A stretch of 64,000 bases of DNA from an uncultured virus (IMG/VR IMGVR_UViG_3300041405_000400) (taxonomy: Duplodnaviria; Heunggongvirae; Uroviricota; Caudoviricetes): the IMG/VR virus record IMGVR_UViG_3300041405_000400; one strand, 5' to 3'. Position numbers and translations under genes: made by a program. Below are positions 19,953 to 53,496 of this stretch, piece after piece. Each line of letters begins with the position of its first letter. Position 1 is the stretch's first letter. The notes beneath the pieces were generated by a model. It did not search any database, was not told the DNA's origin, and saw only the letters and a list, made by a program, of their open reading frames with translations.

Positions 19953-19991
19953 ATTATAAGGACACCTACCACAATTGTCAATGTCAATGAC
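19953..19991 (-). promoter_or_regulatory. sigma70 promoter with palindrome
   Basis: TTGACA-N17-TATAAT; GTCAATGTCAATGAC at 19977-19991. Confidence 0.88.
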
Positions 19992-19997
19992 AAATAA

Positions 19998-23237: not shown

Positions 23238-23705
23238 CTAATTTGTTTTTTGGACAAGGTGATAGCCTGAAATCAATCGAATGGGTTTTCCATCTGCCCA
23301 TTCTTTCGCTGCTTTTGTGTAACCCGACAGCGCCACAATAAAGACTTGCTCATGTTGTTGGGCGTGCATCAGTCCAAACATCTCTCGAACAACAGCCACG
23401 CCCACCCTTCCCTTCCAGTGTTTACATTGCACGACGGCTTGCTTGCCATTTTTTGTTATCAACAAGTCCATTCCATTATCGGCACCGCCCAGGCCGGTCA
23501 TGGTGACTTTGTACCCTTTGGTCTTGAAGTAACCTGAGCATACATGTTCAAAATCTTGCCATGACAGATTCTTCAGCGCTTCAATGCCTTTTTTGGCACT
23601 ACGATGAAACAAATTGGTTTTTCTGTGTCTTGATTTGAGATCAAGTAAAGGTTCAATAGCCAATAACAATGGCATCATGGCTACAAAAATGTATGCAGTG
23701 TTCAT
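23238..23705 (-). CDS. Mrr-like (Mrr_cat) restriction endonuclease with hydrophobic N-terminus
   Basis: WQDFEH..F...GY.V, GADNGMDL, VQCKHW, VREMFG, YTKAA. Confidence 0.88.
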   Translation of the reverse strand: MNTAYIFVAMMPLLLAIEPLLDLKSRHRKTNLFHRSAKKGIEALKNLSWQDFEHVCSGYFKTKGYKVTMTGLGGADNGMDLLITKNGKQAVVQCKHWKGRVGVAVVREMFGLMHAQQHEQVFIVALSGYTKAAKEWADGKPIRLISGYHLVQKTN

Positions 23706-28189: not shown

Positions 28190-28227
28190 ATTATACCAGA
28201 AGATAGACTTTTGTCAATGGCAATGAC
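28190..28227 (-). promoter_or_regulatory. sigma70 promoter with palindrome
   Basis: TTGACA-N16-TATAAT; GTCAATGGCAATGAC at 28213-28227. Confidence 0.85.
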
Positions 28228-28310
28228 GAAGCACCGATGAGCACATCACAGTGATCTGACCGGATATTTGTGATATTATTTGCAAAAATAAATCCTGCGG
28301 AGATTGGATA

Positions 28311-29309: not shown

Positions 29310-29485
29310 CGGGGCACCCTGCTGGCCCCTTTCCCGAAGGGGTTTCGCTCTCTTTTGCAATCAATACCTATGCATTCACTTGCACTTTGTCCGAAAAAGT
29401 GGAAGAGTAGATTGCCTGTCTGAGTTATGCTTACTATGCTCTATCTAGGCAATCCAAAATTTTCTTAATCGGCAAGGTGCTCGAT

Positions 29486-29857
29486 ATGTCTCTAATCAAT
29501 GAATACAATGCAACCGAACAAGCCATCAAGGACTTGCAGGCAAAGATTGATGTCTTGCGCCAAGATCCGTCTTTGGCTCGCGAATTGGAATTCAAAGACA
29601 AGCTGGTTGCACTGATGGAGGGCGGCAATAAGACCCTTCGTGACGTGATCGCCTTGCTTGATCCTCAGAGCCAGCGTCGTGGCAAATACGTTCCGATTGC
29701 GCCGTCTGGTCGTTCTGCGCGCCGTGTGAAGCGTTATAAAAACCCTCACAACGGCGAAGTCATCGAAACCAAGGGCGGGAACCACAAAGCCCTGCAAGAA
29801 TGGAAAAAGAAATGGGGCGGGGATGAGGTCGAGGGTTGGGCGACTTATAAAGATTGA
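29486..29857 (+). CDS. mvaT: MvaT/H-NS-like nucleoid-associated silencer
   Basis: MSLINEY, ELEFKDKL, LRDVIALLDP, RYKNPHNGEVIETKGGNHKALQEWK..WG. Confidence 0.95.
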   Translation: MSLINEYNATEQAIKDLQAKIDVLRQDPSLARELEFKDKLVALMEGGNKTLRDVIALLDPQSQRRGKYVPIAPSGRSARRVKRYKNPHNGEVIETKGGNHKALQEWKKKWGGDEVEGWATYKD

Positions 29858-33973: not shown

Positions 33974-34969
33974 TCAACCTATGGATGGCTGGTTGGAGTA
34001 AAGGTGAAGGGCTTTCTCCTGCCTCATCTTCACAGGCTCTCGCTCAAACATCGAGGATTCAGGAAAGCATGCATTGCGTGCAAGATCCAGCTTCTCGTGC
34101 AAATCATCCAGGTCAGTCCTGTTGTCTGTCGTGTCGTTAATGCACACTGACAGTTTCACGCCAAGTGCGTCCATTAGCTCGGCACTCACATCGCGTTGCT
34201 CGACATGATCGGTATACAGATAAAGCGATTGATCGTAACGGATATCAGAACGTCCTGAGGTCGCGCACCAGTCAGGATAGACGTTTGCGAGTATGCTCTG
34301 GCCAAACACGCGACGGAATTTTTCTGATCTGACTTCATGAAACATGTCTGGGTGTAGTGTCTCCAGTTCTTGCATCCAGCCTTTTTTGATGCCTTTAGGG
34401 GTGTGTTCTGGCAGATAATCAAGTTTGGATTCACCGTAATGTTCAATCATCCACAGCTTTGCGTTTAGTGCATCGTTACCACCGGCCAAATTACCCACTG
34501 AGTTCACTTCTGGAAGGCGTTCGTTCGTGAGGTATACACGAGATCCTTTTTCACCGAAAAAGTCGTCAAATTGAACGTGACGGCTCAGAAAAACGTCGTC
34601 GTTAAAGGCCACGAAATGTTCACTGAGTCCCGGTATTTTGTGCAGGGCCGATTCAATGACTCGGGATGAGAACGTCGGCAGGTAGCATTCATCGAGTATT
34701 TGAGTGTGATCAATGATTTTGACGCGTGGATTGTTGTTTAGAAATTCCGGACGTTGATTGTCGGTTACGATAAAGATATTGCCTTGGAACGGCCAGAAGT
34801 GCTCGATGGAGCGCAGAAGAAATTTCAGTTCTCCATTGTCCCGGTAGCGGCCTTCAACATTTGAGGTTGAAAGTGTCGAGGCGAGGTTTCCATTTTCAGA
34901 ACGCTCTCTTTTTTGTCTCCAAACAGGATCGTTCCCATTTACCCAGGTAATGACGGCATCTACTTTCAT
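33974..34969 (-). CDS. Stealth-family hexose-1-phosphate transferase
   Basis: CR1 VDAVITWVNGND; CR2 RYRDNGELKFLLRSI..PTFSS..IE..IPGLSEHF..FNDD; CR4 CIND. Confidence 0.93.
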   Translation of the reverse strand: MKVDAVITWVNGNDPVWRQKRERSENGNLASTLSTSNVEGRYRDNGELKFLLRSIEHFWPFQGNIFIVTDNQRPEFLNNNPRVKIIDHTQILDECYLPTFSSRVIESALHKIPGLSEHFVAFNDDVFLSRHVQFDDFFGEKGSRVYLTNERLPEVNSVGNLAGGNDALNAKLWMIEHYGESKLDYLPEHTPKGIKKGWMQELETLHPDMFHEVRSEKFRRVFGQSILANVYPDWCATSGRSDIRYDQSLYLYTDHVEQRDVSAELMDALGVKLSVCINDTTDNRTDLDDLHEKLDLARNACFPESSMFEREPVKMRQEKALHLYSNQPSIG

Positions 34970-36148: not shown

Positions 36149-36703
36149 TTGAGACAAATGTCAATGACAAAAACATTAGTATCTGCTCATCATTATTTCA
36201 TTACCCATGAGTACGCCCGGTGGACGGTAGTGTCTGCTTTGCGTCGCGGCGCAATTCGGAGTAAATCCGCCATTTACTCGGCCTTGATCAAGGTGGATTT
36301 TTCACCTCTTTTCGACTTGTCGTTGGGCGTTATCGATGAAAATGAATTTTCACAATGGCATGACAATGCCTTGACCGTCCTAGTCGGCACTGCTGGGCTG
36401 GAGAATCAATACGGCTGGGCAGCTAAGATACTGAATGTCTACCTCAAGACCACTGTCTACGTCGCAGGCCTTGGTCGATCAGGCTTGATTGAATTGGTCC
36501 ATCCTCCCATCGACACCGGGCTTTGGGGTGGCTTGTTGGAGCAGTTTCCTGGTCAAGATGTGTTGCGTCAGACACATCGTGTTCAGGCGATTGTGGGTAT
36601 TACCAATTTGGCCATCTATCACGACATCATTGATGGGATGAAGCAGATGGCCAATATGCGTCAGTGCCTGCTGATCGAGCTGGAGCAGTTCTGGCTCAAT
36701 TAG
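36149..36703 (+). CDS. hypothetical protein (start uncertain)
   Basis: YGWAAKILNVYLK..HPPID conserved-looking block. Confidence 0.7.
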   Translation: MRQMSMTKTLVSAHHYFITHEYARWTVVSALRRGAIRSKSAIYSALIKVDFSPLFDLSLGVIDENEFSQWHDNALTVLVGTAGLENQYGWAAKILNVYLKTTVYVAGLGRSGLIELVHPPIDTGLWGGLLEQFPGQDVLRQTHRVQAIVGITNLAIYHDIIDGMKQMANMRQCLLIELEQFWLN

Positions 36704-37754
36704 CGATTATTGCAGTGCCTTGGTGGCCCAGACTATCCATCAGGCTCACAATCTCATCATGATGCACCAGATGGACTTTGTTGCGCGTTGCAACTGTCCT
36801 GGCTGCTTTGGTGTAACTGGCGTTCGACACCACCACGGCAGCCTGACACTGGTAAAAGTCTTTTGCTGTGTACGCCTCTTGTACACTGCTGTTCCCCACA
36901 GGCGATGAGTACAGCTTGCATTGAATGGCGACTTGAAAGCCACCTTTGTTGGCAATGATATCCGCGCCATGATCCCCCGTTGCCGGTGTCAGCGTGGCCT
37001 GCCACCCTGCTGTCTCCAGAAGCCCAGCGACAAATGACTCGTAATCAATGCCGGTAATCACATCGCTCATTGTCAGCGCCACAACCTCGGCGGAGACGTA
37101 TGGAACCATGTCATTGATCATTTGATGCCAATGGGCTGGGGGCTTGTCATACACCCCATAAGTATTAATGGAGATAAAGGCCACACGAGCGACAAAATAA
37201 TTGGCTTCCTTGCGCCAGTCTGACTCGCGCAGCACGTCATACTCATCAATGAACGTGCCCTGACTGCGTTTTCGGCTCAGTAGCAGAAAGTGTTTTTGCA
37301 CCAGCTCGGAAAACTCGGCGTTGGCCAGATCTTCGACGACCTTCGCAAAGTCCTGTTTGAAACGTGCTTGTGCCGCATCGAAGCTGTCCTCATTGCGACA
37401 ATGCCAAACTTTAAACCGTCGAAACGCCACGTTGTCCGATCTTGGGGCTGCCAGATACTCTTGCCTCAATGTCCTGTAGCGGGATGAGACGCTGTAGACG
37501 TACATGACCAATCGTGTCAGATAAAACGCAGGCAAAAACAGCAGAATGACACCCAGGGCAATGACAAGCTGGGTTTCGTAAGCGCTCACTATCGACTTGA
37601 ACAGGATCAGGATAACCCAAATAATCCCGGCGCCAAGAGTATGCCAAAATGGTTGGCGCAGCTCGCAGTCAAGTTTGACGTAAATGGCTACCAGGGCGAC
37701 TGTAATCAGTCCAACGGTAGCAACTAGCGCTGGTGTTATTTCAAGTGCCGACAT
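36696..37754 (-). CDS. membrane-anchored Mrr-like restriction endonuclease
   Basis: Three N-terminal TM segments; GIDYESFVA..GW, TGDHGADII, IQCKLYSSPVGNSSVQE, YTKAA. Confidence 0.9.
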   Translation of the reverse strand: MSALEITPALVATVGLITVALVAIYVKLDCELRQPFWHTLGAGIIWVILILFKSIVSAYETQLVIALGVILLFLPAFYLTRLVMYVYSVSSRYRTLRQEYLAAPRSDNVAFRRFKVWHCRNEDSFDAAQARFKQDFAKVVEDLANAEFSELVQKHFLLLSRKRSQGTFIDEYDVLRESDWRKEANYFVARVAFISINTYGVYDKPPAHWHQMINDMVPYVSAEVVALTMSDVITGIDYESFVAGLLETAGWQATLTPATGDHGADIIANKGGFQVAIQCKLYSSPVGNSSVQEAYTAKDFYQCQAAVVVSNASYTKAARTVATRNKVHLVHHDEIVSLMDSLGHQGTAIIAN

Positions 37755-40583: not shown

Positions 40584-40622
40584 ATGATAGCCATTCTTTT
40601 TACAATTGTCAATCACAATGAC
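40584..40622 (-). promoter_or_regulatory. sigma70 promoter with palindrome
   Basis: TTGACA-N17-TATCAT; GTCAATCACAATGAC at 40608-40622. Confidence 0.87.
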
Positions 40623-40638
40623 ACATGCGGCCAAAGAG

Positions 40639-43814: not shown

Positions 43815-44417
43815 GTGTTAGTTCAAATTGTGCGAAACCTGTTTACCAAGAAGGCGTCAGGAGTCGAGTCGATCTGTGAGGTCTGCGAGAAATCCTGTAA
43901 CGCGGCCCAGCTTGAACCATTGTCTCTGACACTGAGTCGGGCTTCTTCCTGCTTGGCATGCCCTGACTGCTCAGAGCGCTACGCCAACCCTTACAACGGC
44001 GCCGCTATATTCGTGGTCGAGTTTTTGTCGATGAGTGATGTTAAGGAGCTGCATGAGCAGGAGCTTGATATGAAATTGCTGATCGGAAACAACCCGTTTT
44101 TTGAGAAAATGCTTGCTCGCTCGCAAGTCTTCGACGGAAATGGCTACGTTTCCGCAAAATCCCTGGTGATCAACAAAACAACCGAGCTGATCGCGCATTA
44201 CGTGAGCGGATACGAAGATCGAATGACTATCTCGCACATTGAGGGGCGGTCTATTGCATCCAAGGTTGCCATCGGACAGCTAGATCTGCAAAATCTGATG
44301 GATGCGAACAAATTCAGCCGCATTGACTCGGGAAAGTTCTCTTTTTATTTTGACAGCAACAATAGTAGTGATTTATCGGGTCATAAATTGAGGGCAGTAG
44401 AAAGACGCTCGGAGTAA
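43815..44417 (+). CDS. hypothetical protein with CxxC..CxxC-like motifs
   Basis: CEVC...CPDC. Confidence 0.7.
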   Translation: MLVQIVRNLFTKKASGVESICEVCEKSCNAAQLEPLSLTLSRASSCLACPDCSERYANPYNGAAIFVVEFLSMSDVKELHEQELDMKLLIGNNPFFEKMLARSQVFDGNGYVSAKSLVINKTTELIAHYVSGYEDRMTISHIEGRSIASKVAIGQLDLQNLMDANKFSRIDSGKFSFYFDSNNSSDLSGHKLRAVERRSE

Positions 44418-44458
44418 ACAACTTACCGGCACCGCCGTGCAGTGCCGGATATGTTTGC

Positions 44459-45073
44459 TTATTTTTCCAATTGGGCCAGTGCGGCGACTGCGGCCCGCAG
44501 AGTGGTTTGGTACTTCTTCCCTTCTCGAATGGACTCCATGATGTCGCCCATTGCCCGGTGGCTGGTGCCTTTTTCGGTCGCGAACTGTGGTGAGACTGTC
44601 AGCAAAAACTCGTTGACCGATGACATGTCCATGTTGCGGTAGTGAATGAAGTCACTCAGCGCTGGCATTTTGATTTCGATGAAAACCCGATCCAGGTACA
44701 CCGAGTTCCCGCACAGGCGCGCTTCCCACCCATTCACACCATTTTCTTTGAAGAACGCCAGTATCTGAGCTTCGGCCTCCTTCAGGGAAAGACTGGATTT
44801 TTCGCATTCCGCGAACAAGCCGTTGTCGGTGTGCATCTTGATTACTACATCATCCGAGACAGGCAGGTAGTCTTCGGGCTGGTAGTGAATCACGACGTTC
44901 AGGCTAGCGAAGGGATTGAGATCACTGTCAGTCAGAACAATCGCCATTTCCAGCAGGCAATGCTTGTAGGCCATTTGTTCGGAAAGCTTCGTAAACCCGG
45001 TTGTCTCTACGTCGATCCAAGCATACTTTCGGCTTTCAAGGCTGCTGTCCCACTGTTGTTTTCCACCGGCCAC
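44459..45073 (-). CDS. orn: oligoribonuclease (DEDDh exonuclease)
   Basis: WIDVETTG, MHTDNGL, CGNSVYLDRVF, HYRNMDMSS, HRAMGDIMESI. Confidence 0.93.
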   Translation of the reverse strand: MAGGKQQWDSSLESRKYAWIDVETTGFTKLSEQMAYKHCLLEMAIVLTDSDLNPFASLNVVIHYQPEDYLPVSDDVVIKMHTDNGLFAECEKSSLSLKEAEAQILAFFKENGVNGWEARLCGNSVYLDRVFIEIKMPALSDFIHYRNMDMSSVNEFLLTVSPQFATEKGTSHRAMGDIMESIREGKKYQTTLRAAVAALAQLEK

Positions 45074-45106
45074 AAGGCACCTATTAGATTAATTTAACAA
45101 GTCGTC

Positions 45107-45145
45107 ATTATAGGGCTCAGTCGTATATGCGTCAACCATAATGAC
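45107..45145 (-). promoter_or_regulatory. orn promoter with palindrome
   Basis: TTGACG-N17-TATAAT; GTCAACCATAATGAC at 45131-45145. Confidence 0.85.
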
Positions 45146-45158
45146 ATATATAATGGGA

Positions 45159-45187
45159 TTGACAGGAGAGCATTTCATCGTTAATAT
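45159..45187 (+). promoter_or_regulatory. sigma70 promoter of ncRNA-1
   Basis: TTGACA-N17-TAATAT. Confidence 0.78.
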
Positions 45188-45193
45188 TTACTC

Positions 45194-45414
45194 AACGGCG
45201 CCGCTCCAACGGCTAGTGCTTCAGGGCATGACATCAAGCAGAGTGGAATCTGCACCTGGGGGTTCTAACATTCCCCGCAATGTTGGCGTGTGGCAAACGT
45301 TAGATCAGGCATGAAGAGCTGGCGAGCCCGGAAATGGGCGTTTGAGCCAATAGCAATTGCTTGCACTTGATGTACATGTATCGGCTACAGATTAACCGCT
45401 TCGGCGGTTTTTTT
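45194..45414 (+). ncRNA. structured ncRNA-1 (~220 nt), family unknown
   Basis: Own promoter and terminator; no ORF; helix ACATCAAG/CTTGATGT encloses several hairpins; homologous to the 3' domain of ncRNA-2. Confidence 0.75.
45394..45414 (+). terminator. terminator of ncRNA-1
   Basis: AACCGC-TTCG-GCGGTT-TTTTT. Confidence 0.88.
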
Positions 45415-45430
45415 GTTTTTGCAAACAGTG

Positions 45431-45459
45431 TTGACAACTTAAAAAAGCGTCGTTATAAT
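45431..45459 (+). promoter_or_regulatory. consensus sigma70 promoter of ncRNA-2
   Basis: TTGACA-N17-TATAAT. Confidence 0.9.
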
Positions 45460-45465
45460 TCGCTG

Positions 45466-45843
45466 TGTTGAGAGTGGAGCATAATTAGCGATGCCGTCCG
45501 TTATTGGAGGACGTTAAAGGCTATGTCTTCGGACTTACACCGCCATCAGCCGACTTGCGACCGGCCCCCTCAAACGATTTTAAGAGTGATTGCGGCATCC
45601 CTGGCGGGCTCCTCGCGGTCATTCTTTTTTAAACGTGCCGACTCTCATCGGCTAGTGCCTCCGTGCATGACGAGAAACAGGAGAGACACCTGTAGCGGAA
45701 CGGCCAACGCGGACCAGTTGGCGGGTGGCAGCGTCAGTCCCAGCTATGCGAGCTTTAAATGGCGTCTGAGCATAGTAACAAGGATAGCTCGACTGGTTAC
45801 CGCAAGTAACTAAAGGGCCGCATATTCGTATGCGGCCTTTTTT
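45466..45843 (+). ncRNA. structured ncRNA-2 (~380 nt), family unknown
   Basis: Own promoter and terminator; nested helices TGAGAGT/ACTCTCA, GGAGC/GCTCC, GATGCCG/CGGCATC; UUCG hairpin; 3' domain homologous to ncRNA-1. Confidence 0.75.
45812..45843 (+). terminator. terminator of ncRNA-2
   Basis: AAAGGGCCGCATA-TTCG-TATGCGGCCTTT-TTT. Confidence 0.9.
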
Positions 45844-46103
45844 ATTGCTTGGAATTAACAAGCTCAGTGTCGGTGGGCAGATTAACTGTCGTATCGGCGC
45901 CAGGGCTTTAAAAGCCGACCGCTTTGGTGTTTTTGGCAGGGAGGAAGCGACATTTTATAAGATTTATGTTCGACACGAATTCCACCCAAACACAAGGATT
46001 TAAGTGGTCTTCTAATGAGCCCATCGTCACAATGGCCTAATCATGGAGTCTTGCGCGGCTAGTCGTCTAAGTGAACTAATAAAACTCGAAGACTTCGATC
46101 ATT

Positions 46104-46340
46104 TCACGCCGGAAACGAAACGCCGCTTGTGCAATCCATTGGTGCGGTAATTGGACTGTCGGAAAACTCGGTAAATTGACAAATCAGGGGATTCCAGCCG
46201 CTGTATCCATTATCCATCACATAAACGGCGCCATCCCAAATCTGGACATGAGTCACCACCAATCCCAGGCGTGAATGAATAGCCCAATACCAACCGGCTT
46301 TGGTTGGCGCATCTTTAGTCATTTTCATTTTCATTTCCAT
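46104..46340 (-). CDS. small phage-type hypothetical protein
   Basis: PTKAGWYW motif; GAGG RBS. Confidence 0.65.
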   Translation of the reverse strand: MEMKMKMTKDAPTKAGWYWAIHSRLGLVVTHVQIWDGAVYVMDNGYSGWNPLICQFTEFSDSPITAPMDCTSGVSFPA

Positions 46341-46453
46341 TTTTTCGCCTCTTGCGTGAATTTATTGACTTTGGAAAGGGAGATATCTTCCCACAGCAAC
46401 GTAGTCAGTGGGATTTTGATGTGCCTTATGGCACTTAATACGCTCATCGACAC

Positions 46454-46795
46454 TCAGCTGGACTCAGTGTCGGCAGTCTTCAGTAGTCGTTTCAAACGAC
46501 TAATTTCATTGTCGTTTTTCATGATCCTGTTGTGATACGCAGTCCAGTAGGACTTTGTGCTATCGCCAGGGTAAAACATCTTCGACCACGTATGAGCGCG
46601 AAGGTGAAACGTTTTTGCCCCCTCCGATGTGTTCAAATAGCTGGCGCAATGCACCATATCATGCGCACACCGCCTTCCTGATTTAACAGCCACCTCCAGC
46701 AGATCCCTCAGCCCGTTAGCGGTCAGCTTTTGCGGAAAGCGACTGAAGATAATCGCAAGGCGTACTTTTGTGATAAGCGTAGTTATTGAATTCAT
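46454..46795 (-). CDS. hypothetical protein (probable paralogue of 46811..47158)
   Basis: GAGGA RBS; CA...H...F...A..W pattern and C-terminal EI.RL coil. Confidence 0.68.
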   Translation of the reverse strand: MNSITTLITKVRLAIIFSRFPQKLTANGLRDLLEVAVKSGRRCAHDMVHCASYLNTSEGAKTFHLRAHTWSKMFYPGDSTKSYWTAYHNRIMKNDNEISRLKRLLKTADTESS

Positions 46796-46810
46796 ATCTT
46801 ATTCCTCGTT

Positions 46811-47158
46811 CTAGAACGGAATTTCTTCAGGATCAGCTGCATCCAATCCACGTGCTTCGCACATCTCACGAAGCTTGGCAATTTCACGCTCTTGTTCCTC
46901 AGCGATTCCCGTCAATTCATCGCAGTAAGCTACGAGTCCTCTGACTGACGCCGTTGCATCAAACCATTCTTCGGCATTATTGCTGAACGCTGATTTAATG
47001 TGAGGCTCATCAATGTGGGGAATTGCGTGTTGAAACTCCTTGGCGCAGGCATTCGCCGAGGAAAGGTAGGAGAGGAGCAACCCACCACTGGCCACATTCA
47101 ATTCATCCAGGTGCTGAAAGCTCCTGATGAATTGGTAAAACCTTTTGAATGGATTCAT
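46811..47158 (-). CDS. hypothetical protein
   Basis: AAGGA RBS; ends in EEIPF. Confidence 0.7.
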   Translation of the reverse strand: MNPFKRFYQFIRSFQHLDELNVASGGLLLSYLSSANACAKEFQHAIPHIDEPHIKSAFSNNAEEWFDATASVRGLVAYCDELTGIAEEQEREIAKLREMCEARGLDAADPEEIPF

Positions 47159-47482
47159 ATTGATTCCTTCACCTTTGATTAAATACGGTGTTTATCAACA
47201 ATTAGCAAATGTTGTATTATCGACATGATCACACACTATTAAGGAATGAAAATGAAACTAACTGATCATGAAATTAACAATGCTTATCTTACTTCTATCA
47301 AGGCTGCCCTTAAGTCAGAGCCTGATTTTTGGTACGTCTATACACCCGGCATAGGTATGCAACAAGTGGACAAAGCAGGTCGTGATGCTTACATCCAGGC
47401 TCGCATGGCCAACAGGGTACAATGATTGCTCGATGAGTAATAAGGAGGGCCTGCACCCTCCTTCTCTTTTTTGCCGACAACT

Positions 47483-48355
47483 TTAAGCAACTTCGATTTC
47501 CCCGAAAACTTCCTCCAGCTTGAATCCATCGGCATCCACCAGAGAGACATCTTTTTTCAGCACTGGCTTGGCCGCGTTGAAGATAACTTCCACCGGGTTG
47601 GCTATCGAACTGAACTTCGGCATGTCGATCACATCGATCTTCGAGCGAATAATCGCCAATTCCGGATTGCTGCGTGCCATGTGCTTCTCCGGTAGCTTTT
47701 CTAGCTCCTCGACCGTGAACGGTTTGGAGAAGCTTGTGCGTTGCACATAGGTGCCACGTTTGAAGCTCACTGGGTAGTCGTTCCAATTGATGCCGTTTTG
47801 GAACAGCAATTCTTGTTTCTCCGCGCCATTTTTGCCTTTCAGCTGGCTCGTGGTATAGAAACCAGAAGCAGCCATGGTGATGCTGTTTTTGGTAGCATCC
47901 CACTCGCGCCACAATACCGAGTTAGCCGCTTCAATTGCGGTTGGAACCTGCCAGACACGGGCGTCGAAGGTCGGCAGTCGCCGGGCGTACTTTGGCATGG
48001 TGCGCAAGATTTCGTTGTAGAAACCGATAGTGGCTTGAGCCGCCAGCTGCGAAATCATTTTGGTGATTCGGGCGTTAAACCACACAGCCCGTTTTTTGGC
48101 GTGCGGGTTGAACACCAGGGTGATTTCATCACTCTGCGTATAGCCGATACAGGCGTTGGTTTCCTTGACCAGAAACTTGGTGGTTTCGATCATCGCATTT
48201 GTCATCAACTGATCAAATGGTCGGCCCATGCCTTTGGTGAATTTGCTGAAACCACGACCGTCTACACGGGCAATGATCGGAATGCCCGGCATAAATTTAC
48301 GAGCAGCTTCAAGCCCTTCGTATTCCTTCATCCGGTCGCCAAGTGCGTCGTTCAT
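47483..48355 (-). CDS. Thg1-like tRNA(His) guanylyltransferase / 3'-5' polymerase
   Basis: LGDRMKEYE, RVDGRGFSKFT, YTQSDEITL, FDARVW, WREWDATKNSI, GINWND. Confidence 0.95.
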   Translation of the reverse strand: MNDALGDRMKEYEGLEAARKFMPGIPIIARVDGRGFSKFTKGMGRPFDQLMTNAMIETTKFLVKETNACIGYTQSDEITLVFNPHAKKRAVWFNARITKMISQLAAQATIGFYNEILRTMPKYARRLPTFDARVWQVPTAIEAANSVLWREWDATKNSITMAASGFYTTSQLKGKNGAEKQELLFQNGINWNDYPVSFKRGTYVQRTSFSKPFTVEELEKLPEKHMARSNPELAIIRSKIDVIDMPKFSSIANPVEVIFNAAKPVLKKDVSLVDADGFKLEEVFGEIEVA

Positions 48356-48413
48356 TCTATTGCTCCACGATATTTGATAATTGGCTGATCACTTCAGATC
48401 AGCTCAGAGTAAT

Positions 48414-48923
48414 TCAGGCGCTGGCCTGTTCAGCCTTCTGAGTCAGCTCATGCAGACGACCTTCACGCTTGAGCATTCGAATATGGCTTTTCGACACACC
48501 AAAACGTTCTTTCAATTCGTCAACAGTGCCTTCCGGCGCCGGTTTATTCATTTCACGCACTGCCGCTGCCGTTTTGGCTAGATCGCGAGCTTTCTGCGCT
48601 TTGCTCAGCTGTTGCTGGTGACGCTCTTCATTTTTGAGGTCGCTAGCACCCATATTGAACAGCGATTGAAGCTCGCGTCGATACATGCCCTTCAGGCGCT
48701 CCAGCATCCCGACAATCTCGCTGTCTTGCAGGTCTGACTCGTACTCTGGCAGTTTTCCGTAATGCTTGTGGTAAAGGAAAACTGAAATATCCTTGTCCAT
48801 CTGCCCCATGAGGAGCATCGGGACGTTGCTCATATTAATTGAGCCCATCAGTGCGGCGCCCATATAGGCTGTCGCCAGGGTCACGTCGAGTTTAATCGGA
48901 TCGGCCATCGATGTTGCCCTCAA
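48414..48923 (-). CDS. hypothetical protein with possible C-terminal HTH
   Basis: TVDELKERFGVSKSHIRMLKREG. Confidence 0.7.
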   Translation of the reverse strand: MRATSMADPIKLDVTLATAYMGAALMGSINMSNVPMLLMGQMDKDISVFLYHKHYGKLPEYESDLQDSEIVGMLERLKGMYRRELQSLFNMGASDLKNEERHQQQLSKAQKARDLAKTAAAVREMNKPAPEGTVDELKERFGVSKSHIRMLKREGRLHELTQKAEQASA

Positions 48924-48925
48924 AA

Positions 48926-49360
48926 TTAGTCGTTAATCAGGAATCGCTCTATCAATGGCGCAATAATGAGAGCGGCCACAACAGATGCAAAAAAGACCGG
49001 TAGGAAGAAAAACAACAGGTTCTGTCTTCCTGTTTGTTTCATGTCAAAAGGCCGGACATACACCACGCGCTTTTCACCAACGACCGCTGACGCGAAGGTG
49101 CCCACTGGCACCTCTCGGTCGAAGAGAATCTTCTCTTCGGCATTCCAGTACGAGATCATTGGGCGGTCGTGGCTTTTCCTCGACTTCGCAGCCAGGATCA
49201 TCTTGGCGTCCACAGTGACGTTTACATCACGTGGTGTCATGTAATCATTACTCAGATACAACGCGGCAAGCGGCGCCAAAACGAGCAATACTACGGCCCA
49301 ATAGAGCGGGCACTTGTATTGGCGGATCTTGGCTGTCAGCTTTTGCACTGAAACTGTCAT
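48926..49360 (-). CDS. two-TM membrane protein
   Basis: N- and C-terminal hydrophobic helices. Confidence 0.72.
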   Translation of the reverse strand: MTVSVQKLTAKIRQYKCPLYWAVVLLVLAPLAALYLSNDYMTPRDVNVTVDAKMILAAKSRKSHDRPMISYWNAEEKILFDREVPVGTFASAVVGEKRVVYVRPFDMKQTGRQNLLFFFLPVFFASVVAALIIAPLIERFLIND

Positions 49361-52326: not shown

Positions 52327-53496
52327 TTATAGGCCCATGAAGCAGAGCATTATGAAGGTCATAAAGAGCACAAAGTGCGTCATACCTTCGATGGCATTCG
52401 TTTCGCCATCACTAACGTTCATGCCTGCTACTACCAAGGTTACAGCGAGCATCAGCCCTTGAGCGGGACTAAGCGCCATATTAATATCTTGATTATTGAT
52501 AAGTGCAATAACCTCAATAACCGGCACTGTTAGGATGACTGTACACAGGGATGCACCGAGTGCCAAGTTTATCACGACTTGAAATTGGTTTTTCATTGCT
52601 GCACGCATGGCGGTCAACAACTCAGGACTGGCGGAGATACCTGCAACGACCAGAGCAGAAACAATAGGAGGCAGGCCTGTTCCTTCAATACTAACACCCA
52701 TTGTTTTGGCCATTATTTCTGCAAGAACGCCTGTCCAAATTACACCCACTCCGATCATGAATATTGAAAGTTTTGTACTTTCGTACTCGGAATCATCAGG
52801 ACTATCTTCGATTTTTTCGCCAATGAATTTTGCATGCTCTGCTCGTTTCTTTGCCTCATGTTTTTCATAGCTGTAATGAAAGAAATAGCTATGTTCTTTT
52901 GTTTGGAGCCTTAGAAATAGGGCATACAGCAAGACCATCGTACAGATAGTGAATACTGAATATGCCTTCCATTGACCGCCTGGAATGAATGCTGGAACAG
53001 CCATTGAAACTGTAACTGCGGTAATAATCATGACAACGTAAACACGACCGGAATCATGGTTATAGATTTGTTCTCCATGTTTAAGCCCGCCAACTAGCGC
53101 TGCAATACCCATGAGAGCATTCGTATCCACCATCACCGCTGAAAAAATAACATCGCGAGCCAACGTAGGTGATGGAGAATGCTGCATAACGATTGCCAAA
53201 ATGACAACTTCGACCAGCACTGCGGCAAGGGTCAAAATCATGGTTCCGTAGGGGTCTCCTACTTTTTCAGCAAGCACTTCGGCGTGGTGTGCAATCCGAA
53301 CTGGTGTAGCAATAATCGCGCCGACCAAGACGATTGTAGCTATCCCCGAAAATACCTTTCCATGGCTGATCAGCATATGCTCCATCGGATATGCGATCAG
53401 TGCCAATAGCGCGGATAGAATAATCAACTTCTCATTGATGATTCGTTGATAAATCGATGGTGCTACCCCCAGGATAGGGGTGTTGGCGGTATGCAT
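52327..53496 (-). CDS. chaA: Ca2+/H+ antiporter (CaCA family)
   Basis: About 11 TM segments; HAEVLAEKVGDPYGTMILTLAAVLVEV, LVGGLKHGEQ, SPE, NLALGA, GETNAIEG. Confidence 0.93.
   Translation of the reverse strand: MHTANTPILGVAPSIYQRIINEKLIILSALLALIAYPMEHMLISHGKVFSGIATIVLVGAIIATPVRIAHHAEVLAEKVGDPYGTMILTLAAVLVEVVILAIVMQHSPSPTLARDVIFSAVMVDTNALMGIAALVGGLKHGEQIYNHDSGRVYVVMIITAVTVSMAVPAFIPGGQWKAYSVFTICTMVLLYALFLRLQTKEHSYFFHYSYEKHEAKKRAEHAKFIGEKIEDSPDDSEYESTKLSIFMIGVGVIWTGVLAEIMAKTMGVSIEGTGLPPIVSALVVAGISASPELLTAMRAAMKNQFQVVINLALGASLCTVILTVPVIEVIALINNQDINMALSPAQGLMLAVTLVVAGMNVSDGETNAIEGMTHFVLFMTFIMLCFMGL

Follow-up and report, generated by a model that had tools for sequence, protein, structure and literature searches.

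In a 64,000-nucleotide (nt) stretch of DNA from an uncultured virus of the class Caudoviricetes (IMG/VR record IMGVR_UViG_3300041405_000400; hereafter the window), the gap at positions 45136–45846 is, in our assessment and with somewhat better than even confidence, occupied by two paralogous genes for structured non-coding RNAs (ncRNAs) of an undescribed family. We refer to them as RNA-1 and RNA-2, and regard them as a probable new, narrowly distributed phage RNA family. The conserved unit, as delimited by comparison of the two copies and of close relatives, is a core of ~180 nt with a terminator, represented by 45194–45416 for RNA-1 and by 45632–45846 for the paralogous core of RNA-2. An initial annotation had described the locus as a tandem pair of paralogous, independently transcribed structured ncRNAs of no known family; this description was broadly right with respect to identity, wrong with respect to the 5′ domain assigned to RNA-2, and went further on covariation and transcription than the evidence allows.

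The two units lie on the plus strand at 45194–45416 and 45466–45846. Each is preceded by a sigma-70-type promoter and ends in a UUCG-capped terminator; all sequence features that had been quoted for this arrangement are present in the window. The RNA-1 promoter (45159–45187, TTGACA-17-TAATAT) matches the consensus at 10 of 12 positions. A transcript of ~221–224 nt is predicted from a presumed start 7 nt after the −10 hexamer and a presumed end in the U run of the intrinsic terminator at 45394–45416, in which a stem-loop of 6 base pairs (bp) with a UUCG loop (45394–45409) precedes the U run. The promoter of unit 2 (promoter P2; 45431–45459, TTGACA-17-TATAAT) matches at all 12 positions, and the RNA-2 terminator (45812–45846) consists of a stem-loop with 13 pairs and a UUCG loop (45812–45841) followed by a T run. 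This terminator scores on the minus strand too (45837–45816), as the end of a leftward operon. At the left edge of the gap, which is poor in open reading frames (ORFs), lies the divergent minus-strand promoter (45107–45135, 11/12) of an exonuclease gene (44459–45073), and the two units thus sit between a minus-strand terminator and a minus-strand promoter, in the opposite orientation.

Unit 2 differs from unit 1 by a poorly conserved 5′ segment (45466–45631, plus strand) that precedes the core. Within RNA-2, a weak terminator-like hairpin (45604–45616), followed by a T-rich run to 45631, had been missed in the initial annotation. No sigma-70-like site was found between 45460 and the RNA-2 core, hence production of the core would require promoter P2 and read-through of the weak hairpin, or processing. 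Independent transcription is accordingly a fair description of the units as drawn, each with a predicted promoter and terminator, but not of the conserved core of unit 2, directly upstream of which there is no promoter. In two relatives of the window, X3 and X6 (see below), promoter P2 carries a T-to-G change at 45456, within the −10 hexamer.

The units are paralogous beyond chance. Three collinear blocks are found in both, and the blocks as well as the stem pairs originally quoted with them are present as written. Block 1 has exactly two occurrences in the 64 kilobases (kb), 45210–45232 and 45649–45671, which are identical at 20 of 23 positions; 0.16 matches are expected by chance, and two or more were obtained in 1 of 100 shuffles. 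Block 2 has exact matches at 45282 and 45717. Between the blocks the paralogues are saturated with changes, and the blocks themselves are identical. Model R1, a covariance model for which only unit 1 and a hand-drawn structure were used, retrieved the unit-2 core (45635–45800) from the window with 35.0 bits (E = 1.4e-8), and the next-best match in the 64 kb, within a minus-strand ORF, reached 9.7 bits (E = 0.19). With a sequence-only model of RNA-1, RNA-2 reaches 19.3 bits, 15.7 bits less than with the structured model, a gap that is indicative only, since the two models differ in information content. The 5′ segment of RNA-2 was considered as a third copy and rejected, as R1 with filters off sees just two copies in 45000–46000.

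In the fold that we propose, two short invariant 5′ hairpins, P1 and P2, would be followed by a multi-helix junction closed by helix P3, with P4, P5 and P7–P8 as arms, and the P7–P8 arm would contain a kink-turn-like loop formed by the GCGAGC and CGUYUGAGC blocks. In RNA-1, P1 (GCCG/CGGC) is formed by 45200–03/45210–13 and the P2 hairpin (GUGC/GCAU) by 45216–19/45226–29. The junction domain (45231–45373) is closed by P3 (45231–37/45367–73) and comprises P4 (45238–42/45249–53), P5 (45265–69/45282–86), a small hairpin in block 2 (45291–94/45299–302), P7 (45320–23/45346–49) and P8 (45326–29/45336–39). The corresponding elements in RNA-2, likewise on the plus strand, are P1 (45637–41/45648–52), the P2 hairpin (45655–58/45665–68), P3 (45671–74/45788–91), P4 (45677–81/45689–93), P5 (45704–08/45717–21), the block-2 hairpin (45726–29/45733–36), P7 (45743–49/45770–76) and P8 (45752–54/45761–63), with an extra 3′ hairpin at 45795–45811. 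The P1 and P2 hairpins together make up block 1; their stems are invariant between the copies and their loops differ. Invariance of these stems, while the neighbouring helices covary freely, suggests that P1 and P2 are read by sequence.

Evidence for a common fold comes from the paired positions that differ between the copies. Our main alignment was fitted by hand and anchored on the invariant blocks by coordinates. RNAalifold recovers P1, P2, P3 (4 bp), P4, P5, the block-2 hairpin, P7 and P8 from this alignment, with a consensus energy of −38.6 kcal/mol and a structure conservation index of 0.72, corresponding to a z-score of −6.2 against column shuffles (0/300); for MAFFT alignments the same comparison gives z-scores of −1.9 (14/300) and −3.2 (1/300). 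An in-register scan of the anchored alignment yields five helices of at least 4 bp with at least two compensatory pairs. Under three null models the mean number of such helices is 0.55, 0.47 and 0.32, and none of the 1000 + 2000 + 2000 shuffles reaches five. The compensatory helices include P3, which reads CAUC/GAUG in RNA-1 and CGAG/CUCG in RNA-2, P4 (GCAGA/UCUGC and ACAGG/CCUGU, respectively) and P7 (UGGC/GCCA and AUGC/GCAU). In a model-guided alignment, A5, 95.9% of the cells pair and there are six two-sided changes, two each in P3, P4 and P7, compared with 29–40% pairing and 0–2 two-sided changes in slid controls. Furthermore, the G-U pairs in P2, P5 and P8 fit the plus strand only.

Block 3, with the strands GC-GA-GC and C-GUYU-GA-GC, has the appearance of a kink-turn-like loop, in which tandem G·A/A·G pairs would lie by P7 and a bulge by P8. 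In RNA-1 this internal loop spans 45324–45345, where G324–A325 face G344–A345 beside P7 and a 4-nt bulge (45340–43) adjoins P8; in RNA-2 it is formed by 45750–51/45764–69, with G768–A769 facing A751–G750. In the account of Lilley (PMC4316175), kink turns have a canonical C helix 5′ of the bulge and, 3′ of it, tandem G·A and A·G pairs that open the NC helix; they usually set up tertiary contacts or bind proteins. The arrangement of tandem G·A/A·G pairs and C helix is present in both copies, as a sequence pattern; a kink turn proper would in addition fold, with metal ions or an L7Ae-type protein, into a kink of ~50 degrees.

By analogy with that account of kink turns, a role in tertiary contacts fits two candidate loop contacts, which surfaced in the scan without having been designed into the alignment. 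One is a loop–loop contact, L1–L4, between 45205–08 (UCCA) and 45244–47 (UGGA) in RNA-1, with UCUC/GAGA as the counterpart in RNA-2; its register depends on where a 1-nt gap is placed in L4. The other is a candidate pseudoknot, L2–J4/5, between the P2 loop (45221–25, UCAGG) and junction J4/5 (45255–59, CCUGG) in RNA-1, with UCCGU/GCGGA in RNA-2. A long-range pairing of block 2 with block 3 (CAAACG/CGUUUG in one copy and CAGCG/CGUCUG in the other) was considered and not adopted, as it competes with P8 and the kink-turn-like loop and its geometry is awkward. Taken as a model, the common fold with a kink-turn-like arm and two tertiary pairings is supported but not proven.

Close relatives of the locus provide a second line of evidence. 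Near-identical or related DNA is contained in public sequencing runs, some of which are labelled as single organisms rather than metagenomes. One relative (X2) is essentially identical to the window, and two (X3 and X6) are ~96% identical from 44400 to 45848–45850, just past the RNA-2 terminator, and continue into unrelated sequence; a further relative (P0001), obtained by protein search, is a contig with the same architecture as the window. In the exonuclease gene, 16 of the 19 changes are at codon position 3, which shows that these relatives report constraint. Between X3 and the window, 5 of 223 bases are changed in RNA-1 and 5 of 234 in the RNA-2 core, as compared with 10 of 120 in 45074–45193 and 6 of 49 in 45417–45465, the two promoter and spacer stretches. 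Altogether, the RNA bodies differ at 10 of 457 positions and the other non-coding DNA, in which the RNA-2 5′ segment is counted (see below), at 27 of 316 (Fisher p = 1e-4), and the contrast persists when restricted to RNA-1 and its directly listed flanks (p = 0.002). Judged from these comparisons, both RNA bodies are under purifying selection as non-coding sequence.

The five changes of X3 in RNA-1 (45277, 45315, 45341, 45375 and 45383) are all at positions that are unpaired in the model, for which the odds by chance are ~0.12. At least seven base changes in the RNA-2 core of P0001 can be deduced from amino-acid replacements; five are at unpaired positions, one converts an A-U to a G-U pair in the 3′ hairpin, and one (45677) is at the end of P4. 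We also note that the RNA pair is flanked by two recombination or indel points, at 45612–45615 and 45848–45850.

The absence of a known family, as stated in the initial annotation, was borne out. Rfam 15 (4227 models) gives no match at gathering score in the whole window, and ARAGORN detects no transfer RNA (tRNA) or transfer-messenger RNA (tmRNA) in it. At E ≤ 10, 12 sub-threshold Rfam matches are obtained in 44900–46300, nearly all overlapping the two terminators, and the best of these score 21.2 against 37 (isrD) and 19.7 against a gathering score of 56 (rsmX, on the terminator region). A blastn search of the locus against 5,426 Escherichia coli genomes returned just terminator matches of ~29 nt and no record with 80% coverage. 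An apparent likeness of some words to tmRNA or 5S ribosomal RNA is unsupported by the ARAGORN, Rfam and E. coli searches, the last of which matched terminators only.

Distant homologues were sought with block patterns and with a second covariance model, R2, built from both copies. The block 1 pattern occurs at 38 loci in IMG/VR, none of which has block 3, and four of which have a loose block-2-like word at the wrong distance. For block 2 there are two IMG/VR loci, GC-rich and coding-looking by eye, and for block 3 there is none. The combined pattern of blocks 1 and 2 gave one chance match in Joint Genome Institute metagenomes, in sequence that appears coding by eye, and three chance matches in GTDB species genomes. 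R2 scores at most 16 bits on 44 pattern loci, has no match in the records of five large phages (among them PA5oct, 201phi2-1 and Viktualia), and gives two weak matches in 151 genomes of one order, the best with 21.3 bits and E = 0.0044 per genome but without P7–P8, which is chance level. Relatives of the neighbouring exonuclease were searched for in IMG/VR and none was confirmed. The two-copy model that the initial annotation had proposed was thus built and run, but yielded no distant homologue in the phage, pattern-locus or genome sets. As a separate observation, three IMG/VR contigs of 32–80 kb (L009, L017 and L033) have in common, around locus position 1501, a near-identical block-1-like word, 22 letters of which are the same in two of them; the rest of the RNA is lacking and R2 scores are 11.9–14.2 bits. 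This word probably comes from a stretch that is conserved in a different group of phages and has no connection with the RNA locus.

Several results weigh against the assignment as two genes for structured ncRNAs. Beyond relatives of ~92–100% identity, no homologues were found in the above searches, which closes the family to phylogenetic covariation. The covarying stems reported initially are supported insofar as several helices keep their pairing through two-sided changes; the signal, however, comes from two diverged paralogues only and depends on the alignment. A5 gives four compensatory helices (P = 0.007) and the MAFFT alignment A2, in which block 3 is misaligned, gives none, while a covariation test with a slack of ±3 nt (72 observed, 61.5 ± 10.2 expected) has no power. 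The register of P3 in RNA-2 is ambiguous, the choice of the model differing from the hand-drawn one. The proposed RNA-1 fold (−37.5 kcal/mol) lies 22 kcal/mol above the minimum free energy (−59.8 kcal/mol), and RNA-1 is not unusually stable, with a z-score of −0.74 and 42 of 200 shuffles folding equally well; the RNA-2 core has a stability z-score of −2.04. The kink-turn-like bulge has 4 nt in both copies (GUUU and GUCU), provided that the last P8 pair is G326–C339 or G752–C763, respectively, and the standard bulge has 3 nt (PMC4316175). The change deduced for P0001 at 45677, A to C, breaks the terminal P4 pair. No protein partner is indicated by any of the present analyses. Finally, metatranscriptome contigs from an RNA run (X20) cover neighbouring genes of a relative and not the units, an observation that says little and does not amount to silence.

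Some of these points are also expected if the locus is decaying duplicated DNA without RNA function, i.e., promoter–terminator cassettes left by recombination that serve at most as insulators between leftward operons; were the RNAs not made, the locus would be an ordinary recombination scar. The pair does lie at a recombination boundary, with divergence at 45848/45850 and a 417-letter indel at 45612–15, the RNA-2 terminator acts in the predictions as a bidirectional one that also ends the leftward operon, and both the ordinary stability of RNA-1 and the lack of distant homologues in the pattern and R2 searches are in line with decay. However, conservation of the unit bodies is about four-fold better than that of the surrounding promoters and spacers, where an insulator or a decaying duplicate would lead one to expect the reverse; the paralogues, although saturated with changes between the blocks, are identical inside them; and compensatory changes are present. 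We therefore consider decay unlikely.

The order of promoter, complex fold and intrinsic terminator is that of a transcriptional riboswitch, and the units could be cis-regulatory, an aptamer with a terminator platform controlling the next unit or a gene to the right of 45848 in the relatives. Loop contacts brought about by kink turns are a typical trait of riboswitch aptamers, and the SAM-I, c-di-GMP and cobalamin aptamers (PMC4316175) resemble the proposed folds of RNA-1 and RNA-2 in combining a multi-helix junction, an arm with a kink-turn-type loop and tertiary pairings, followed by a terminator. X3 and X6 differ from the window directly past the RNA-2 terminator (at 45848 and 45850), where a downstream plus-strand gene could exist. 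In the window itself, however, there is no plus-strand ORF of at least 70 amino acids in 45846–48966 and no credible plus-strand gene after either terminator, so that a downstream gene of the kink-turn riboswitch type is missing. No anti-terminator alternative is evident, and none of the riboswitch models in Rfam gives a match, even with the cut-off relaxed to E ≤ 10. The bulge is one of 4 nt, and there is no hint of a ligand. Cis-regulation is, on this evidence, an improbable function for the pair.

An equally improbable role is that of base-pairing sibling small RNAs (sRNAs), which would use a conserved seed to target host or phage messenger RNAs (mRNAs). Sibling sRNAs in tandem are a common arrangement, and Pseudomonas has tandem paralogous sRNA genes as well as the RsmX/Y/Z decoys, in which abundant RNA titrates a protein. 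RNA-1 and RNA-2 resemble these siblings and decoys in being tandem paralogues with terminators of their own; a Rho-independent terminator with a U tail is the usual build of Hfq-type sRNAs, and weak sub-threshold Rfam matches to isrD, isrK and suhB fall on the terminators. On the other hand, stems and the kink-turn-like loop take up most of the invariant blocks, so that a long conserved seed in unpaired form is missing. Neither block 1 (up to 3 mismatches) nor block 2 (up to 2) has a complement elsewhere in the window on either strand, and an RNA of ~220 nt that folds around a multi-helix junction would be large among seed-type sRNAs. A decoy for CsrA/RsmA of the RsmX/Y/Z type was rejected: GGA occurs in RNA-1 at background rate (2 in 223 nt, or 0.009 per nt, against 0.0115 per nt on the plus strand of the window), and unlike RsmX/Y/Z the fold is a junction and not a string of GGA hairpins. 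RNA-2 has eight GGA in 381 nt, with a single A-N-GGA.

The 5′ segment of RNA-2 had been interpreted as a domain of ~180 nt belonging to the conserved fold, and this part of the description did not hold. The segment differs between the window and X3 at 11 of 147 positions (a count obtained by subtracting the 40 listed rows from a total of 51), which is about the spacer rate, and X3 and X6 have 417 letters in place of 45613–14, a net gain of 415 nt. The proposed closure of the domain by TGAGAGT/ACTCTCA does exist (45469–75/45641–47), but it is at chance level, overlaps the P1 loop and is absent from the minimum-energy fold; we rejected it, given that about four perfect 7-mer complements are expected by chance in an RNA of 381 nt. 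The 5′ ~165 nt of RNA-2 look like the remnant of something that is 415 nt longer in the relatives, and in the simplest reading promoter P2 and the 5′ segment once began a longer element, a small gene or another unit.

The same insertion bears on coding potential. A 96-amino-acid ORF (45523–45813) opens in the 5′ segment, 11 nt after a Shine-Dalgarno-like GGAGG (45507–11) that precedes its ATG at 45523, and runs through most of the RNA-2 core. If this ORF and small ORFs of unit 1 were real products, the blocks would be peptide motifs, a view to which the open frame of 96 codons, of equal length in P0001, lends some support, as does block 1, which is read in the same frame in both units (RLV..MT). 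Block 2, however, is in different frames, since the spacers are 49 and 45 nt, and the 57-amino-acid ORF over RNA-1 starts 5′ of the RNA-1 promoter. The 96-residue product has no Pfam or PHROG match and contains much R, S and low-complexity sequence. A comparison with 5.8 billion protein clusters gave P0001 (92% identical, 8 of 96 residues replaced) as the single relative, and a search with the N-terminus among longer proteins gave P0001 only. The net insertion of 415 nt, not a multiple of 3, splits the ORF in X3 and X6, whereas the RNA-2 core after it is ~98% identical, which argues strongly against coding. The initial call of ncRNA over the 96-residue ORF thus stands, the units, as far as these comparisons go, encode no conserved protein, and a protein-coding origin of the blocks is very unlikely.

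A DNA-level element, i.e., a replication origin, protein-binding array or single-strand initiation signal with the blocks read as DNA, is similarly far-fetched: the blocks are conserved as primary sequence, including the never-covarying P1 and P2 stems, and the cumulative GC skew of the window has its maximum in the 44001–46000 bin, but promoter and terminator frame each unit in the same orientation, the helices are specific to one strand owing to their G-U pairs, the compensatory changes suggest that a single strand folds, and neither iterons nor an AT-rich unwinding stretch were seen.

If RNA-1 and RNA-2 are genes for structured ncRNAs, the host polymerase would transcribe both from their near-consensus promoters, and the RNAs would be abundant soon after infection. 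The loops of P1 and P2 would dock on the P4 loop and J4/5, resulting in a compact, pseudoknotted particle that would act in trans as RNA and not as an mRNA or leader. Tentatively, we propose that the RNAs bind a host or phage protein through their invariant blocks, as a scaffold or decoy. The suggestion of a ribozyme, also made initially, receives no support of its own.

The nearest described systems appear to be ncRNA001 and ncRNA002 of the Pseudomonas jumbo phage PA5oct, although the locus belongs to none of the systems compared here. These RNAs are described as ORF-less (PMC7318152), highly transcribed throughout infection, of no known family and of unknown function. They were observed by RNA sequencing, whereas RNA-1 and RNA-2 are known from sequence alone; moreover, they lie 13 kb apart, are not described as paralogues and are annotated without known promoters, in which respects RNA-1 and RNA-2 differ. 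Neither the complete PA5oct record nor the stretch with both ncRNAs contains a match to R2 at E ≤ 1.

The ornate RNAs GOLLD, ROOL and OLE (PMC12286853) and manA (bioRxiv 10.64898/2026.07.01.735769) are phage- or prophage-associated structured RNAs of unknown function, some of them phage-borne like RNA-1 and RNA-2, which self-assemble through RNA–RNA contacts made by loops and kink turns. The 4-bp complementarity of L1 and L4, which covaries between the paralogues, could act within or between molecules in parallel to the ornate RNAs, but oligomerization is pure conjecture. No Rfam model of the ornate families matches, RNA-1 and RNA-2 are far smaller than GOLLD and ROOL, and the ornate families have hundreds of members, in contrast to two paralogues and their near-identical relatives. 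It is a speculative and rather unlikely extension that the pair founds a new class of compact, pseudoknotted phage RNA particles, in which the kink-turn arm and the covarying 4–5-bp loop contacts are intermolecular, and that, produced at high level within the first minutes of infection, it forms two orthogonal RNA-only or RNA–protein assemblies, or a catalytic core, capturing a host factor or defence sensor; each paralogue would then assemble with itself, as the loop codes are mutually non-matching.

A phage precedent for covarying loops is the packaging RNA (pRNA) of phi29, an RNA of ~120–170 nt made from an early promoter, in which the 4-bp complementarity between two loops covaries between related phages. 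It is part of the packaging motor of phi29-like Bacillus phages, which are small. A candidate counterpart here would be L1–L4, with UCCA/UGGA in one copy and UCUC/GAGA in the other at aligned positions, in a register that hinges on the placement of the 1-nt gap. The Rfam model of phage pRNA does not match, there is no phi29-like packaging context among the window proteins and, unlike phi29 pRNA, there are two paralogues with mutually non-matching loop pairs.

Large phages have many ORF-less, strongly transcribed regions of unknown role, few of which have an internal paralogue that allows a fold to be proposed from sequence. If our assignment is true, RNA-1 and RNA-2, each with a kink-turn-like arm and two candidate tertiary pairings, offer a model that is small (~180 nt) and tractable for what structured phage RNAs do early in infection, whether they serve as a scaffold, as a self-assembling particle, or as a decoy for a protein of the host that binds RNA or acts in defence. 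Genetics may be within reach, since runs labelled as single organisms contain related DNA. A practical point is that relatives of ~96% identity from public runs can separate constrained RNA bodies from promoters and spacers.

With respect to its setting, we read the window as the early region of a novel large phage, presumably driven by the host polymerase. It has 102 non-overlapping ORFs of at least 70 amino acids, 74 of them on the minus strand, and 37 near-consensus sigma-70 sites (at most one mismatch per hexamer), 30 of them on the minus strand, a strand bias that fits a phage early region. At least six of these promoters (e.g., 19953–19995, 40584–40626 and 28190–28231) have in common a longer upstream word, repeat family D1, which is a second TTGACA-like copy immediately 5′ of the −35 hexamer; the D1 promoters look like a phage-specific early-promoter class. 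Megablast searches of larger stretches of the window against phages (INPHARED) and plasmids (PLSDB) gave no DNA match, and a blastn comparison of 45100–45900 with 50,697 phage records was likewise empty. For four window proteins, the best match in phages stays below 60% identity. The closest is that of the Thg1-like protein, at 53.3% to an uncultured phage of 635 kb, followed by the Pseudomonas phages Viktualia and 201phi2-1.

The window proteins that can be recognized by Pfam and PHROG comparisons are phage-like or accessory, among them SSB, Hsp20, a Ham1-like protein, a DNA-polymerase-like PHROG, two metallophosphoesterases and a DUF2388 protein. Two proteins of the early region, both encoded on the minus strand (23238–23705 and 36696–37754), have Mrr-type restriction-endonuclease catalytic domains. 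A 126-amino-acid protein (29477–29857, plus strand) contains an MvaT-type xenogeneic-silencer DNA-binding domain (E = 6e-20); an H-NS/MvaT-like protein carried by a phage could imitate the silencing system of the host or act against it. The MvaT-type protein hints at a Pseudomonas host, and on the basis of the MvaT and DUF2388 matches and of the rhizosphere and soil runs that contain the DNA, the host is probably Pseudomonas.

A Na/Ca-exchanger-family membrane protein (52327–53496, minus strand) and a Stealth-family, capsule phosphotransferase-like protein (33974–34969, minus strand) are unusual phage cargo. Close to the RNA locus, a gene for a Thg1-like tRNA-His guanylyltransferase (47483–48355) and the exonuclease gene at 44459–45073, which is RNase T/oligoribonuclease-like, both on the minus strand, flank the locus within 3 kb, although the window is without a tRNA gene according to ARAGORN. 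On its far side the exonuclease gene converges, at a GC-rich hairpin (44426–44448), with a 200-amino-acid ORF (43815–44417, plus strand) that has no Pfam or PHROG match and contains two CxxC pairs.

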